A DNA stretch of 64,000 nucleotides from Lama guanicoe (Eukaryota): NCBI GenBank assembly GCA_013239625.1, contig MU053557.1:3068123-3132122 (forward strand). The letters run 5' to 3'. The notes under the pieces were generated by a model. The model was not told the origin of the DNA and did no database searches. It saw nothing but the letters and a program-made list of their open reading frames with translations. The position numbers and the translations under genes are program-made. Position 1 is the stretch's first letter. Each line of letters begins with the position of its first letter. Shown piece by piece: positions 2,390 to 60,473 of the stretch.

Positions 2390-2503
<114 letters not shown>

Positions 2504-3510: not shown

Positions 3511-3693
<183 letters not shown>

Positions 3694-8456: not shown

Positions 8457-9095
8457 TACTAGTTTCGTGTTGCTGTTGTAACAAATCACCACAAACTTAC
8501 TGGCTTAAAACAACATGAAGTCCTTGATGGTAAAGCTACTTTCATAATGTAATGAAGACATTATTTTCCTTTTGCCCCGCATGATCAGCCTGTGGTGAAG
8601 TTCACAGGCAAAACTAATCACAGCAATGATTATCTAGAAGGTGCACGTGGAGAACGTTTGGAGCAGTCGAAAGATTCTTTTATCTTGATTGTGCTTCTTA
8701 TATGAGAGTATGTATTTGTACAAAAATTTTTAAATGATAGACTTAATATCTGTGCGTTTCACTGCAAATGAATTTTCCCTCATTAAAAGAGCATGAAAAA
8801 TGTTTTAAAAGCACAAATGTAATATCTTACATTTCTGGAGGTCAGAAGTGCACAATCAGTCTCAGTGACTGTCAGCTGTCAGCAAGGCTGTGTTCCTCCT
8901 GGAAGTTCTAGAGAAGAAACGGTTTCCTGACCTTCTCCGGCTTCTTGGCCACCCACATGCCATGGTTCCCGGCCCCGTCCTCTGTCTTCAAAACCCGCAA
9001 CCTCGCGTCTCCAAAGCTCTCTGACTCTGACTCGCTGCCTTCCTCGTCCATCTTTTAAGGCCTCTTGTGATTGCATTGGGTTCACCTGGTGATGA
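8457..9095 (-). mobile_element. MaLR LTR (MLT1C/D-like), interrupted by an L1 3' fragment at about 8525-8810
   Basis: gctgttgtaacaaatcaccacaaacttactggcttaaaacaac resumes as tcttacatttctggaggtcagaagt...gctgtgttcctcctggaagttctag. Confidence 0.75.
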
Positions 9096-9099
9096 CGAT

Positions 9100-10135
9100 T
9101 CGCTCTGGGTCAAACTCCAGCCAGGATCAAACTCCCTCTTATCCACTAGGCCTCAACTTTGACCTATGAAGACTTGAACAAAACACCAACTCTGTTCCTA
9201 ACAGCTCAAGACCCATCCTTAGGATGACCCTAACCCCCTTAAAGTGCTTGCCTGAGAAAACTCAAGGCTGCCAGAAAAATTTACTGTTTGTTCCACCAAC
9301 ACCTAAGGAGAGGGCCCCGTCTCCTGGCCCCAGTGGGAAGGGAGGAGCCTAACTTCTGTCGAGTTTGTTAACAAACCAACCCTTCCTTCCTGGTTTTTGT
9401 AATTTTCCACTTCCCTGGCTCTCCTGAGCCTCCACCGGGCTCTCTGTCCTCCCTACTCCCTGATTCTCCCTTTAGAGTACCCAGTCACTTCTGTCCAAAT
9501 CAAAATCGAGTTCAGTTCACACTTGACTCTTTTCCTATTTTTTTTAATTTTATTTTTTATTGACGTCTAGCTGATTCACAGTATTAGTTTCAAGTGTTCA
9601 GAAAGTGATTGAGTTATACATTACATACATACATACATACATCTACTTTTAGACTCTTTCCATTCTATGTAGTCTTTATTTTTATTTTTTTAACTCTATC
9701 TGCTTTAGACAGTGTTATACTTAGTTTAAAAAAAGAATTTTGGAAGATCTGTTTTTTTCTTTTCAATGCACTGGAATAATTTCTAGAGCATTAGCTAATC
9801 TAATCTTTAACGATTTACTGTCATTCATCTGTGAACATTCCTTGCCATGGTGCTTCTATTGGGGGTAGTTATTTAATAAATTCCTCTATTTATCCAATGG
9901 AAATTGGTCTGCTTGAGCTTTTTAAACAAGTAAGATAACTTCTGGTAATTCTTACTTCCCTAAGAAAGTATCCATTTCATCTAGGTTTTAAAAATATTTG
10001 CAAATTACTCTCTTCTGGTTTAAAAATTTTTTTCTCTATTTCAATTGTTATGGACTCCTTTCCTACTGTAATAGGATATTATTGACTAAAATCTGTCCTT
10101 ACCACTTTAACTAGTATTCAGTTCTGTTATCTTAG
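9100..10135 (+). mobile_element. ERV1-type LTR (MER39/MER34-like), split by antisense L1 fragments at about 9540-10055
   Basis: gaaaactcaaggctgccagaaaaatttactgtttgttcc motif; the LTR 3' part resumes near 10060 (aaaatctgtccttaccactttaactagt). Confidence 0.6.
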
Positions 10136-28162: not shown

Positions 28163-28441
<279 letters not shown>

Positions 28442-48770: not shown

Positions 48771-48808
48771 GGATATGAAGCCTGACAACATTTTGCTTGA
48801 TGAACATG
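48771..48808 (+). CDS. STK32A: STK32A coding exon (38 nt): (R)DMKPDNILLDEH(G), catalytic loop
   Basis: Long pyrimidine tract ending cccttag at 48770; donor G|gtaagt at 48809. Completes HRDxKPxN across the splice junction. Confidence 0.95.
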
Positions 48809-53062: not shown

Positions 53063-55160
53063 ATTATATGCGGATGGCATGATACTACTATATATAGAAA
53101 ATCCTAAAGGCTCCACGCAAAAACTTCTAGAGCTGAGAAAAGAATTTGGCAAGGTAGTAGGATACGTGATAACATACAGAAATCAATGGCATTTCTTTAC
53201 ATTAACAATGAAATATCAGAGAAGGAGAGTAAAGAAACAATCCTTTTTAAAATTGCATCCAAAAAAATTAAATTCTTTGGAACAAATCTGACCAAGGAAG
53301 TGAAAGATTTATACATGGAGAATGACAAAACACTGAGTAAGGAAACTAAAGATGACTTAAAGAAATGGAAAAGAAAAAAATAAAGATAGAAATGGAAAGA
53401 TATCCCATGTTCTTGAATTGGAAGAATTAATATTGTTTAAATGGCCATACTACCCAAAGCAATCTACAGATTTAATGCCATCCCTATCAAATTACCTGGG
53501 ACATTTTTCACAGAACTAGAATAAATAATCCAAAAATTTATATGGAATCACAAAAGACCCAGAATTGCCAAAGCATTACTGAAGAAAAAGAATGAAGCTG
53601 GAGGAATAACCCTCCCAGACTTCACACAATACTACAGAGCTACTGTAAACAGAACAGCACGGCACTGATACAAAAGAAGACATATGGATCAATGAAACAG
53701 AATAGAGATCCCAGAAATAAATCTACAAACTTTTGGTCAACTAATCTTCAACAAAGGAGACAAGAACATACAATGGAGTAAAAGACAGTCTCTTCAGAAA
53801 ATGGTGTTGGGAAAACTGGACAGCTGCATGTAAATCAATGAAGTTAGAACAGTCTCTCACACCATATACAAAAATAAACTCAAAATGGCTTAAAGACTTA
53901 AACATAAGACAAGACACTATAAACCTCTTAGAAGAAAACATAGGCAAAACATTATCTGACATACATCTCAGCAATGTTCTCCTAGGGCAGTCTACCCAAA
54001 TGATAGGAAAAAAAAGCAAAAATAAACAAATGGGACCTAATTAAACTTAAAAAGCTTTTGCACAGCAAAGGAAACCATAAGAAAAACAAAAAAAAACCAC
54101 CTATGGAATGGGAGAAAACATTTGCAGGTGATATGACTGATAAAGGTTTAACTTCCAAAATATATAAACAGCTCATACAACTTAATAACAAAAAACAAAC
54201 AACCCAGTACAAAAATGGGCAGAGGACCTACAACAAGCAATTCTCCAATGAAGACATATAAATGGACAACAGGCACATGAAAAAATGCTCAATATCACTA
54301 GTTAACAGAGAAATGCAAATCAAAACTACAATGAAGTATCACCTCACACCAATCAGAATGGCCATCATTCTAAAGTCCACAAACCATAAATGCTGGAGAG
54401 GGTGTGGAGAAAAGGGGACCCTCCTACACTGTTGGTGGGAATGTAGTTTCAGGCAGCCAGTATGGAAAACAGTATGGAGAGTCCTCAGAAAACTAAAAAC
54501 AGACTTACCATGTGATCCAGCAATCCCATTCCTAAGTATATATCCAGAGGGAACCTTAATTCAAAAAGATACGTGCACCTCAATGTTCATAGCAGCACTA
54601 TTTACAATAGCCAAGACATGGAAGCAACCTACATGTCCATCGACAGTTGACTGGATAAAGAAGTTGTTTTATATTTATACAATGGAATACTACTCAGCCA
54701 TAAAAAAGAATAATATAATGCCATTTGCAGCAACATGGATGGACCTGGAGATTGTCATTCTAAGTGAAACAAGCCAGAAAGAGAAAGGAAAATACCATAT
54801 GATATCACTTACATGTGGAATCTAAAAAAAAAGACAAACTTATTTGCAAAACAGAAATAGACTCTCAGACACAGAGAACAAACTTGTGGTTACCAGCGGG
54901 GGAGGGAGGTGGGAGGGGATAAATTGGGAGTTAGAGATTTGCAGATACTAACATACATATATGTATGTGTGTGTATATATATATATGATAAACAACAAGT
55001 TCATGCTATATAGCGCAGGGAAATATATTTGATATCTTGTAATAACTTCTGGTAAAAAATATGAAAATAAATACATGTATGTTCATGTATGACTGAAGCA
55101 TTATGCTGTACACAAAAAATTGACACAATATTGTAAACTGACTGTACCTCAATTAAATAA

Positions 55161-55198
<38 letters not shown>
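53063..55198 (+). mobile_element. Lineage-specific LINE-1, 5'-truncated (about 2.1 kb), disrupted ORF2, (AT)16 tail at 55165-55196
   Basis: Several ORF2-like ORFs between 53079 and 54825. TSD ttaaaatcacgggaccttcc (53043-53062) / ttaaaatcaccagaccttcc (55199-55218). Confidence 0.95.
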
Positions 55199-55204
<6 letters not shown>

Positions 55205-56837
55205 TCACCAGACCTTCCTTTGGGGACCAGCTCTCAGATTCATTCCCACCTGGCACAGAAGGGAACCTGGCAGAAAGAGCCTCAAGGTGAGCAGAGGGAA
55301 GCAGGGCAGCATCCTGGACTTGGAATTGAGACTTTGGGCTGGTGGCCACCGGCTCCGTGAAGCTCTGCTTTACTTGTTCACCTTGAGGGCTCAAGGCTAG
55401 AGGTTCTGCTAGATCCTGACCCTTAAATAATTCTTTCCCATCATTTCCTATGCATTCTGTCGGGAGAACTAAACCCTGAGTCAACCAGAAGGTAGTTCTT
55501 TTAGTTTGTTCAGCTCTTTGGTCTCTTCATATAGCACAAAAAGTTTTGGGGAGATTGATCACTCACCAAAGAAGTCCTGGACCAAATTCTACATCTTAAT
55601 CCTAGCTCTGCTACTGCTGAGCCCTGAAAACTTAGCCACAAACAGGTCTTCTATAAAACAGGGACTACTTTGCTAGCCTAAAGTGAGAAAACCAAATGGC
55701 TCTACAACATCCTCGTCCTTCTACTGCTACACGAGCACAGACAATCTCAGGACTGAGACGGCTTAGAACACCTGCCAGGCTCAAGGAGAGGGTCCCATGC
55801 CTGGCTGCCCATCTGAATTACTGGTGGAGTTTCCTGTTACTGTTTTTAACGTGGATGCCTGGCTCTCCTATCAGTCCCACTGCACTGGCGTCTGAGGAGA
55901 GTCAAGTCGGGCAGGTGTGTTTTGCAAAATGACACTGGAGTTTCTGATCATGACAAATACCAAACAATTGGATACTTACTTCCTGCCAAATGCTAAGTCT
56001 TCCACAGCCTTATTTCATCTGATCCTCCCAACAACCTCATGAGAAGACTATTCCTATATTCCAGCTTTACAGAGACAATAAGTCACCTGAAGGAGGCACA
56101 GCTAGTTAGGGGTAGAACCTGGGCTAGAAGCCACGAAGTCTGACTCCAGAAAACAGGCTCTTCTCAATCACTAAACCTCCAGGCTGACCTATTTTGTATC
56201 AAACCTTGTGAATCATTGATTCAGTGCGTTGGATGCGACCCAGGGAGAAGAAACAGAGAAAGAAAAAACTGAGACGACCAATATTACAAAAGGGTGAGTT
56301 CTTGAAATCCTCTCTTTTGGTACCATTTATGCAAGAATACCTCATCTTTCAGCTCAGTGAGTGCTGCTTTTGCTTTATTAGAATGTCATCTGATAAAAAC
56401 AAAACACCTTTTGCACAAAACAAAACCCTGGTGATGAAGAGCAGTGAGATTTACCGTTAGAGCAAGCTGGGTGCTCTCATGGAGTAGGTAGTGAAGTTGG
56501 CAGAGGGGGAGGTGGACTGTGAGACGTGGAAAAAGAATCCGGTGACATCCTCTCCAGTTACCACCATAGCTCATCAGAACCACAGAAGCACGCAAATGGA
56601 AATGCCAGCACTTCAAGATCCTCTCAAAACAGGTGACCCTCGTGCCAGCAGCTAACAGGACGGGCCGGTCTGCCTGAGCTTCTGGCACCGCCCTTTTCCC
56701 ACTCCTCGCTATAAACCCAAGGACCCTGATACATACACCTTGTAGGGTGCGCGCCCTGATGAAATCAAGTGTGAGACCCGGTGTTTGTCGCCATGAATAT
56801 TTAAAACTGAGGAGAGATCCTAGAGGACAGCTAGTCA

Positions 56838-56839
<2 letters not shown>

Positions 56840-56868
<29 letters not shown>
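56840..56868. repeat. Poly(T)29 run
   Basis: Direct reading. Confidence 0.95.
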
Positions 56869-57479
56869 GGACAACTCAATTTCACAAACAGTAGAGAGAC
56901 TTCAAATCTACAGTGTATTAGGCGCAGAATTCCGGGCACGACCCACGTGTCCTCGCTCCCAGTCTAGGGCTCTTTATTCATACAGCCTCTTTAAAAATAA
57001 AACTTGACTTCCCCCTGCCCCCGCCCCCGCTGCTTTCCCTTGATGCGTTATTTTGTTGGGCATCACTGCGGGACAACCTGAACTCTCAGACAAAAAACAA
57101 AAAACAAAAAACCAAAAACAAAAAAAAACTACTAATGATATTTAGGAAAAACAAGGAGAAAAAAGAACTCTTTCTTGGCAAAGAAATAAATATATGTATC
57201 CGTATTCGGGTCCGCTTTGTATTAACAACGTCTGTCTCTTTAAAAAAAAAAAAAGGATCCCGTCAGAAGTGCCTGGAAAGTTGGCACTTCGGCTAGCTCT
57301 AGGCTGCAGCAACTTAAAATGCTGCCGACAGACAAAGATTGCCCACGTAGAATTTACCAGAGCGTAAGCTCTTCACCACCGAGGTGAAAACTTTCTGAGG
57401 CTTAACTACAAATTTACAACCAGACACTAACCTTTTCCTGTCAGGTTCTGGCCGCTGGAGGGTTGCTGGTTTAAGACTA

Positions 57480-57800
57480 TTCGAGGATACAATAATTGAG
57501 CTTTTAACTGCGTGTGCCCGGTTGCCGGGTGCGCACAAGAACTGACGGACGAAGCTTCCAGAAGCTTGGGGGGAGGCGCAGGGCACGCCGCGCGGCTGGG
57601 CGGGGCTTGACTTCTCTGTGGCCCTCCTCTCTCGCAGGGCACGCGCACGTCACGGACTTCAACGTCGCCACCACGCTGCCCGCGGACGTGCGCATCACCG
57701 CCGTGGCCGGCACCAAGCCGTACATGGGTAGGCGCCCCTCCCCCCAGCCCCCACCCCGAGCCGCTGTCGTGACCCGGCGCTGGGGTTTGCTTTTCATTGC
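57480..57800. promoter_or_regulatory. Intragenic CpG island core over the activation-loop exon, with a CpG-enriched shoulder from about 56640
   Basis: The exon alone has 15 CpG in 90 nt and about 71% GC (hand count). The flanking intron is also CpG-rich (gggcacgccgcgcggctgggcggggc), while the rest of the window is AT-rich and CpG-depleted. Confidence 0.75.
57638..57727 (+). CDS. STK32A: STK32A coding exon (90 nt): (G)HAHVTDFNVATTLPADVRITAVAGTKPYM, DFN motif and activation segment
   Basis: Acceptor ctctctcgcag ends at 57637; donor G|gtaggc at 57728. Carries TDFN and AGTKPYM, typical of the STK32 family. Phase 1-1. Confidence 0.93.
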
Positions 57801-60473
57801 TGTGGGCACTGTGATAACGGGTCTGGTCATCTGCAGGGACCTGCAGCTAGAAATAAGGCCCCCTCTGACTTTACCTGCGCAGCTTCTGGTTTCCCAGGTC
57901 TCACGTGAGCCTTGGGAGTCGCCTTTTAGCCAAGCACCCAGTCTGATCTTGACTCGGGAGGGCCCTGGGTTACATGTGAAAACACTATTCTATGAGTTAT
58001 TTAGGACTCATCAGGAAGGACTCCCTCCTTCCTGATGAAGAATATTAGTAATTAATTCAGTAAATACCTACTGCTTGCTTCTGTGTGCTCAGCACTGTTT
58101 CAGGTGTTGGTGATCTTACAGGGAGCAAAACAGACTGGGGCTCCAGCCTAAGGAGCTGACTTTCTAAATAAAACGAGTTTAGCAAAATGGAATCAAACAG
58201 AGAGGATGCAGCAATAAGAAAGATGGTAATAAGTGACAGTATTATCATAACCGTGATTTACATAATACTGCATAATATGCACAGGGCTATATAAAGTTCG
58301 CAAAGTGCCTTCCAGTTACAATGTTGGTTTTAGGTTTATCACAACAATCCTATGAATTATCCTTTTTAAAGAAGAGGACCTGGACTTTGCTTGAAGATTT
58401 GAAACTTATCCAAAGGGTGACTGAAAGGTAGCATTAGGTGCCCAAATTGTCAAGTAGGTCTCACAATTGTGTTAACAGTCACAAAGTAATACAAATTCTA
58501 AGTTCTGTTGTTGAAGGCGGCCAACTCTGAGTAGACATCATTGTAGCAGAACTAGCCCTACCTCCCATCCACCCCAGGGATATAAAGGGAGAAGCCTTGC
58601 CCTTTGGGGGCACCGGGTACCTCCCCTCCCCCCCGGCTGTTCCTAAGGCAGGTAAGTCAGAGCTCAAGAGAATTCTCTGTCGAGTCTGGGCGTGGCTGTG
58701 AGGAGAAGCACCTGGGGTTCCATTCTTTCGTCACTTTGCTTGCTGACTGCTCCCTGGGCTCACAGAGCCGGAGTTGGCCACAGTGGGTTGGTAGTTTGGA
58801 GTCAGGTCTTGCTGGGGACCATGGCAGTAGCGGGCAGAGATATGCAGCAGTGCGTGGGAGTGTCGGGAAGCTGGAGGGAGGCGGATTAGCCAGAGGGTGT
58901 GGTCCAGCTTCCTAGCGGGCCCTCCACTGCCTAGGGGTGTGCAGCCTGGAAGTGGAGGGAGGGAGGCTCCCGTCAGCGTGACCTAATGGCGACACCACCA
59001 GTCCTAAGAGAACCCAGCTGTATCAGACTCTCTGGAGGTGACACCCGAACATAGGGGTGGTTTGAAAGCTCTATACATATGCAGGCAGGGGTGAGCCTTG
59101 TCCACAGACCATGAACTTTGAGCTATCAGAAGCCACTAGAGAGAGATCATCCCGGGGACCAAGCAGGTTACCTGTGTTAGGATTCCTCTGCCTCTTCTAT
59201 TCCCTTTCCACAATCTAAATCAAACAGTGCTCTCCCTGAGATGGAGGAGGAGGAGGTGTGAGAGCCACTTCAGCCGTCCATCCCGACACCAGGGTGGCTG
59301 AATCCAGCCTGGCGGGGTGGGTAAGCTTTGACTCAGATATGAGACTCATTTTAATATTTCACAGGGCTGAATTTTAAAATATGTAAATGTTTTAATACGC
59401 AAAAGGGATTCAACTGTATTAGGCAACAGAATGAGTTATTATTAAAGGAGCCCTGTCCGTACCCAGCAAAAACGGGCAGCTAAACACTGCATAGTTGTTA
59501 GCGGATGACAGAAAAGTCAAAACTGTTCAGGCTTCTTACCCTAATTAGTTGAGATGCTTTAAAGTGGGAGATGTTGCTGGTTAAACCGGTGGAATTAACT
59601 CTGGGGTGGAACGAATTGCTAGCTATGGCATGCCATTTGCAGCCAAAGTATTTGAGCTTGAAGTTAAGGATAAGAGCAATGCCACTTCCTTTTAATATGT
59701 GGCTGTCTTCCTCGTGGAACTAAAGAGAGAAAGGAAAAGAGAACCCCACCATGCCGGGCCACCTCACTTCCCCAGAGAAGATTTCTTTCTCTGGGGAAAA
59801 ATGAGCCTTATTTTATATGGTATTTGAACAACTGCAAATGTCCTGGCTTCCAATTATCAGTGGGAGGGAAAAGTCTCTTTTGTTACTTCAGAAATAATGG
59901 GCACATATAATTCAGCCCATTTTTCTGCCTAAAACCCACGGTGCTCAGCTGATAAAAAGGAATCTCTGAGCCTGCTGGTCTGATGAGTTGATTCCCCAGG
60001 TTTCCTGGGTTTCCACATTAAGGGCTATTTTCTTGGAGCCAAATCAGAAAATGTGCATCTGGGTTTTCTAGGCCTGGTTTCCATGGTGAGAGGAGTAAAG
60101 GAAGACCATCTTTCTTTTCTCTCAACAGTGATTTTAAATACAATATCTGTATAATTTAATTCTCCTCAAAATTGTCATTTCCAGCCTTTTCACAACATAG
60201 AGCTGGGAAATTGGAATCCAGTCAAGGTTCCCTGCACCTCTCCACCTTCACCCTTATAATAACAATGACTAATATTTATTGAAAGCCTTCTAGGGACCAG
60301 ACAACATGTTAAGTGTTTTACGTTCATTCACTCATTTATTTTTTCTCAATAAGCCTGCGAGGCAGACTATAATTATCACCATTTTAGAACGAGGAAATAA
60401 GAAGCAAAGCAATTTGCCCAAGATTACATGGCTAATAATGGAAAAAGCCTAGATTTAAAGCAAGCTCTTTCTG

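Follow-up and report, generated by a model that had tools for sequence, protein, structure and literature searches.

An STK32A exon saturated with G and C, probably shaped by local GC-biased gene conversion, has lost an activation-loop threonine in camels

Why should one 90-nt exon of a conserved kinase gene be filled with G and C, and is this composition connected to the changes in the protein that it encodes? Exon 7 of STK32A raises this question. In the kinase, it covers beta-8 together with the DFN motif and the activation segment, and it lies in the window, the whole 64-kb stretch of DNA that was analysed. The original prediction was that a GC-biased process, or else a new unmethylated island, had rewritten this segment locally. 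The exons, the CpG-rich zone and the amino-acid changes are listed in Table 1.

The locus is the orthologue of STK32A (YANK1). STK32A is the best match across the exons, human STK32A (PDB 4FR4) is the only match to exon 7 among solved structures, and the HRD, DFN and GTKPY motifs are intact, in agreement with the claim that DFN and GTKPYM had stayed unchanged. STK32A was found at a single locus, with both paralogues at separate loci (contigs C55224 and C5617). Exons are numbered on the assumption that translation starts in exon 2, which is described for the mouse gene (PMC10202454). The exon 7 peptide is identical in the Camelus ferus record and in two Camelus dromedarius records. Thus, it is not an assembly artefact, and it predates the split between these two species. 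The Camelus bactrianus model (P0003) contains only the first 20 residues of exon 7 and then runs on into intron-derived sequence; the probable cause is a fault of assembly or annotation at this GC-rich exon. An alpaca or llama STK32A protein was absent both from the homologue matches listed (120 of 1169, 3 of 3, and 120 of 599) and from the cluster members listed in three look-ups (at most 15 per cluster).

The other exons serve as controls. Exons 3, 4, and 6 have no differences from human, as had been stated in the original prediction. Exon 5, which that prediction overlooked, differs from human at five sites, one of them changed on the camel branch, and is identical to the Camelus ferus, dromedarius, and bactrianus proteins. 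GC3 in the other STK32A exons ranges from 0.33 to 0.80. The contrast that had been drawn with the preceding exon is therefore only partly a fair one. Exon 6 is AT-rich, but it is the most AT-rich exon of the gene, whereas exons 4, 5, and 11 have GC3 of 0.76–0.80.

Table 1. Positions in the window of the STK32A exons, the CpG-rich zone, and the amino-acid replacements placed on the camel branch
Feature	Position	Strand	Remarks
Exon 3 (control)	2424..2479	+	GC3 0.55; camel change 0
Exon 4 (control)	3541..3692	+	GC3 0.76; camel change 0
Exon 5 (control)	28174..28347	+	GC3 0.80; one camel-branch change, S139G
Exon 6 (control)	48771..48808	+	GC3 0.33–0.38; 0 CpG; camel change 0
Upstream CpG-enriched shoulder	56450..57450	.	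Ordinary GC; o/e 0.49–0.75; 29-T tract at 56840–56868; A-rich tracts
CpG-island-like core	57374..57956	.	583 bp; 200-nt windows with GC at least 0.5 and o/e at least 0.6
STK32A exon 7	57638..57727	+	90 nt; AG before, GT after; equal phase at both ends, therefore skippable in frame
Ala179 codon (GCC)	57700..57702	+	Canonical AGC activation-loop phosphosite position; Thr in other mammals, Ser in echidna
Other camel-branch replacements (parsimony)	V160A 57643; I162V 57649; I167V 57664; M170T 57673; E174D 57685; M175V 57688	+	

All 29 complete codons of exon 7 end in G or C, and the exon holds 15 CpG at a GC content of 71.1%. The values first given (GC3 of 100%, 15 CpG in 90 nt, about 71% GC) and the peptide were reproduced on recount. 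This pattern exceeds chance. The probability that 28 of 28 degenerate codons would end in G or C is 2e-6 at a GC3 of 0.63 and 0.002 at a GC3 of 0.80, the highest among the other STK32A exons.

The GC peak today spans exon 7 and the non-coding DNA on both sides of it. The intron directly 5' of the exon has a GC content of 0.61 and a CpG o/e of 0.89, and the intron directly 3' has 0.66 and 0.63. The window overall has 0.40 and 0.24. This is the strongest CpG peak in the 64 kb, with 35 CpG in its densest 300-nt window, 13 in the next peak, and 2.8 expected. The 100-nt introns beside exons 4 and 5 hold 0–2 CpG. By the loose criteria for a CpG island (at least 200 bp, GC at least 0.5, o/e at least 0.6), the 583 bp of the core around exon 7 qualify. 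By the strict criteria (at least 500 bp, GC at least 0.55, o/e at least 0.65), the composition holds over 57403–57886, and these 484 bp fall narrowly short in length. Upstream, the shoulder reaches an o/e of 0.75 at a GC content of only 0.42, and the CpG-rich zone totals about 1.5 kb and is asymmetric about exon 7.

The protein was compared next to this DNA pattern. About 11 differences from human had been estimated for exon 7, and there are 11 against both PDB 4FR4 and the human protein (P0284), but only seven are unambiguously on the camel branch. Parsimony was applied to 45 mammals, each represented by a single protein, on an assumed species tree, and it places V160A, I162V, I167V, M170T, E174D, M175V, and T179A on that branch. 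R176 and V180 differ from human but are common to many mammals, and the ancestry of T169 and A173 is ambiguous. Seven is the largest number of exon 7 changes on any branch of the 45-mammal tree, and the next highest is four.

On the camel branch, 7 of 30 residues changed in exon 7, compared with 4 of 255 in exons 3–6, 8, 9, and 11. The latter is ordinary for a branch, and the rest of the gene carries no sign of relaxation. Exon 7 is also the most variable exon of the kinase core across mammals, at 2.67 parsimony steps per site. After allowing for this variability, the camel excess is about 4–5-fold, with a Fisher p of 0.03 for all steps and 0.015 for unambiguous steps in a comparison that omitted two changes with ambiguous parents. 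These counts support an acceleration on the camel branch that is local to exon 7.

The camel residues at 160, 162, 167, and 179 are absent from all 47 distinct non-camel mammalian loops, which were drawn from 143 records. The original prediction had depended on other mammals having other residues in this segment, and this is what the 47 loops contain. Measured against the mammalian majority, the camel loop differs at 9 residues and 46 of the 47 others at no more than 5; only the echidna is equally far. At the same positions, six of the seven camel residues are present in other STK32 sequences examined, and alanine is found at 179 in STK32C. The camel changes therefore look tolerated.

Each of six camel-branch replacements requires a single A/T-to-G/C (W>S) step, four of them A>G and two T>C, while E174D may be S>S or W>S. 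It had been suggested that several changes can be such single steps. This is true for six of the seven, and for these the step is obligatory. Edited RNA copied back into the DNA was considered as a source and ruled out by the presence of both A>G and T>C and by the affected introns. The ratio of W>S to S>W replacements is 6:0 on the camel branch and 72:37 on other mammalian branches (p 0.08–0.09), which by itself is a weak indication of direction bias; a change of Ala169 to Thr, whose placement is ambiguous, would run the other way (S>W) had it occurred on the camel branch.

Each of the six W>S replacements gives rise to a CpG. Codon positions 1 and 2 hold 26 further A/T sites, at 15 of which such a step would also produce a CpG, and the comparison of 6/6 with 15/26 gives a p of 0.06. 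With 32 W sites available, six W>S changes are more than would be expected even without constraint (Poisson 0.0005–0.014), where a neutral W>S transition distance of 0.03–0.06 per site on the branch is assumed rather than measured. With this assumed distance, the excess disfavours relaxed selection alone. On each of five separate branches elsewhere among mammals, Arg176 has been replaced by C, H, or Q, a pattern that fits a methylated CpG codon. Thus, the island is probably new in camels and not ancestral.

The threonine pattern of the activation segment was also predicted to be altered. It is altered, and more seriously than was claimed, as Thr179, which has been lost, occupies the canonical AGC activation-loop position. 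Counted back from the APE glutamate as 1, residue 179 is the twelfth, and it aligns with the PKC iota threonine that most closely precedes FCGT. A common Ser/Thr site at position -12 from this glutamate is described for activation loops in PMC6930252. At the phosphosite, STK32A is reported to have Thr, STK32B Ser, and STK32C Ala (PMC12681871). STK32C of the same genome has Ala at the equivalent of 179 and Thr at the equivalent of 178, so the phosphosite is 179 and not 178. The neighbouring Thr178 is retained in camels. Among the 47 distinct non-camel mammalian loops, position 179 is Thr in 46, Ser in 1, and Ala in 0, and Ala179 occurs in 0 of the 98 distinct non-camel loops examined. The AGC phosphoacceptor, a Ser or Thr at the twelfth position from the APE glutamate, is absent from the camel exon 7, which has Ala179 instead.

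The importance of this loss for the kinase can be judged in part from previous studies. Ten in vitro autophosphorylation sites of STK32A are listed in one report, in which Thr163 is included and Thr179 is not, and peptide coverage may have missed Thr179 (10.1101/2020.03.04.976555). According to the same report, dephosphorylated STK32A is active in vitro, and the role of PDK1 is left open. Activity in the dephosphorylated state and the missing Thr179 both argue against much functional weight for T179A. The kinase activity of STK32A is described as required for hair-cell reorientation in mouse (PMC10202454), and its loss is reported to alter sleep in fish and mice (10.1101/2025.09.09.675098). 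Camels carry a fixed, natural T179A in an otherwise conserved kinase, and the need for loop phosphorylation is thus directly testable. No paper on STK32A in camels and none on T179 of STK32 was found in the open-access literature. More distant STK32-like kinases, apparently fungal and invertebrate, were collected from metagenomes (L034–L146). They retain the DFN motif, and the equivalent of 179 is Ser or Thr in 28 and Ala in 3 of the 37 distinct loops scored. A scan of the metagenome contigs with a degenerate pattern found 113 loci, and a mammalian STK32A loop was present at none of them.

A local episode of GC-biased gene conversion (gBGC) before the Camelus species split is the likely explanation of the exon. 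The features observed directly, namely the composition peak, its reach into the introns, the excess of camel-branch replacements, and their obligatory direction, point to it, and exon 7 probably belongs among gBGC footprints. A meiotic recombination hotspot, or successive hotspots at one place, would have covered exon 7 and roughly 1 kb of the intron upstream of it in the camel lineage. Repair of mismatches in heteroduplex DNA would have been biased toward the G/C alleles. Over time, every third codon position could have been filled with G or C, and a small CpG island could have been built across the exon and its introns. Six A/T-to-G/C replacements that are conservative or tolerated elsewhere in the STK32 family, the loss of Thr179 included, would have been fixed in the process. 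We infer that the synonymous and intronic G/C is derived, that recombination was the driver, and how long the process lasted.

The coverage of both coding and non-coding DNA over about 0.5–1.5 kb was counted for gBGC. The GC3 of 0.76–0.80 already present in exons 4, 5, and 11, the long A and T tracts within the zone, and the asymmetry about exon 7 were counted against it. The proposed local rewriting by a GC-biased process holds with regard to the exon-local acceleration, the six obligatory steps, and the extension into the flanks. Its extent was overstated, since 7 and not 11 residues changed on the branch and the exon is variable in all mammals.

Such episodes are known from other lineages. 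Accelerated human exons were reported in 2009 to carry W>S clusters that extend to the flanks (PMC2631073), and Riffis et al. (2025; PMC12290510) report 29,845 gBGC episodes among about 70,000 murine exons. As described in these two papers, the episodes resemble exon 7 in being limited to one exon and to one branch, in their clustered A/T-to-G/C changes including replacements, and in the affected non-coding flanks. Their equilibrium GC3 in punctual episodes, near 94%, is comparable to the saturation seen here. The camel case differs from them in lineage and gene and in its fully saturated third positions, and it was read from proteins and present-day DNA composition. It also packs six W>S replacements into 90 nt, in contrast to most punctual rodent episodes, 5,413 of 7,572 of which are reported to have none (PMC12290510). 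The process is thus well known, and the case is new, unusually saturated, and touches a regulatory residue. It calls for caution in scans for adaptation in camels, where exon 7 would look positively selected. The pattern probably arose as a by-product of a recombination hotspot and not as an adaptation.

Other explanations have to be weighed against gBGC. Hypomethylation may have come first, with a new intragenic regulatory element in camels (an orphan CpG island, or an internal or antisense promoter) whose CpGs were protected or selected, so that the protein changes would be by-products. The 583-bp island, the high o/e of the shoulder at low GC, and the CpG created by every one of the six W>S replacements are in its favour. 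Kocher et al. (2024; PMC11170920) describe many species-specific orphan islands, with frequent overlap between these and gBGC tracts, and gBGC is proposed there as a source of such islands. Like those that overlap gBGC tracts, the camel island is small, intragenic, far from a promoter, and probably lineage-specific; it differs from them, as they are described, in overlapping a coding exon. However, protection from decay alone does not raise the rate at which A/T-to-G/C changes are fixed, and the 15 other A/T sites that could also create a CpG leave the six of six not clearly enriched. Hypomethylation may also be a consequence or a partner of gBGC and not an alternative to it. As the sole cause it is unlikely. 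Positive selection on the activation segment, for example for independence from loop phosphorylation, with the GC content incidental, appears more doubtful still. The four sites with residues found in none of the other mammalian loops would fit it, as would the roles of STK32A in vestibular hair-cell polarity (PMC10202454) and sleep (10.1101/2025.09.09.675098). Yet it leaves the saturated third positions, the intronic peak, and the one-way direction unexplained, and the changes look tolerated.

About as improbable as selection is a combination of relaxed selection and chance in an exon that was already GC-rich, weakly constrained, and skippable. Exon 7 does have the most parsimony steps per site in the kinase core, other exons of the gene reach a GC3 of 0.80, and it is exactly this exon that is missing from a number of mammalian proteins. 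The distance of the camel loop from the majority is nevertheless matched only by the echidna, the excess persists with the variability of the exon allowed for (p 0.015–0.03), the rest of the gene is without relaxation, and the intronic island is unexplained. Least likely by a wide margin is the import of a GC-rich exon, whether from the paralogue STK32C, from a retrocopy, or from a mobile element. STK32C (YANK3) of the same genome is itself in GC-rich DNA and, like the camel exon, has Ala160 and Ala179, the latter in agreement with the alanine reported at its conserved phosphosite (PMC12681871). However, the two exons are identical at only 61 of 87 nt, with a longest common run of 9 nt, and the gene is an STK32A orthologue in all other exons. 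The match is convergent and not copied. Genome searches with 56780–57500, 57400–58000, and 57900–59400, in which very common words were skipped, each matched this locus only. In these searches and in the direct comparison with the STK32C exon, no near-identical donor tract for exon 7 was found, and copying from the paralogue or a retrocopy is judged unlikely from the alignments.

If gBGC shaped the exon, the kind of hotspot can be considered. The full saturation suggests a strong or long-lived source in preference to a single short episode, and hotspots directed by PRDM9, which are short-lived, fit it less well. Camels probably have PRDM9, since open SSXRD, PR/SET, and zinc-finger exons are present in the same genome. 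This PRDM9 (L149 and L151, contig C9322) has a short zinc-finger array with five complete C2H2 matches in its last exon, and a second SSXRD locus is present at L150 (contig C1178). A human PRDM9 13-mer had no match near exon 7, and as a human motif it is uninformative for camels. Hotspots that do not depend on PRDM9 and lie in hypomethylated regions (Joseph et al., 2024; PMC11161765) would, by analogy, account for the long life of a GC peak at a CpG island despite PRDM9, as well as for parallel changes in canids. The word "camel" is absent from the main text of that paper.

Canids are described in the same paper as being without PRDM9. Dog and arctic fox (P0122 and P0124) have four changes of the A/T-to-G/C type in exon 7 (T163A, M170T, M175A, and K184R), which also counts in favour of gBGC at this site. 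T163A affects a reported autophosphorylation site, and K184R is inside the otherwise invariant GTKPY motif. It is tempting, but speculative and on balance unlikely, to imagine a latent PRDM9-independent hotspot that was active for a long time in camels and separately in canids through a feedback of CpG gain, hypomethylation, and recombination. STK32A in camels, with its phosphosite lost, might then resemble STK32C in its regulation, and vestibular hair-cell polarity or sleep might be affected.

Exon 7 is also an in-frame cassette, and its skipping removes the DFN motif. Isoforms that are missing exactly this exon were found in 20 collected proteins, 17 of them mammalian and mostly predicted (P0011, P0012, P0024, and P0169–P0182; the non-mammalian ones are P0029, P0085, and P0105). 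They are annotated in many mammals and in some reptiles and birds. The form that lacks exon 7 is possibly a conserved, kinase-dead splice form, and the status as a cassette may loosen the constraint on the exon.

Several other features were noted around the exon. No Rfam match was found within 55000–60000. Inside the CpG-enriched shoulder, at 56840–57260, are a perfect tract of 29 T and A-rich tracts, whose parent sequence was not found by genome search. A retrocopy origin of this stretch was rejected, as it had no such parent and no convincing target-site duplication. Its T and A tracts could hold chromatin open. Downstream of exon 7, 58550–59300 is GC-rich yet CpG-poor, and a second, weak CpG-island-like stretch is present at 8847–9195. 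By eye, both resemble what we take to be old repeat relics. Finally, 57577–57588 is an exact 12-nt copy of the exon 7 acceptor junction (57633–57644). It lies 56 nt upstream, has no pyrimidine tract, and is a possible cryptic, out-of-frame acceptor.
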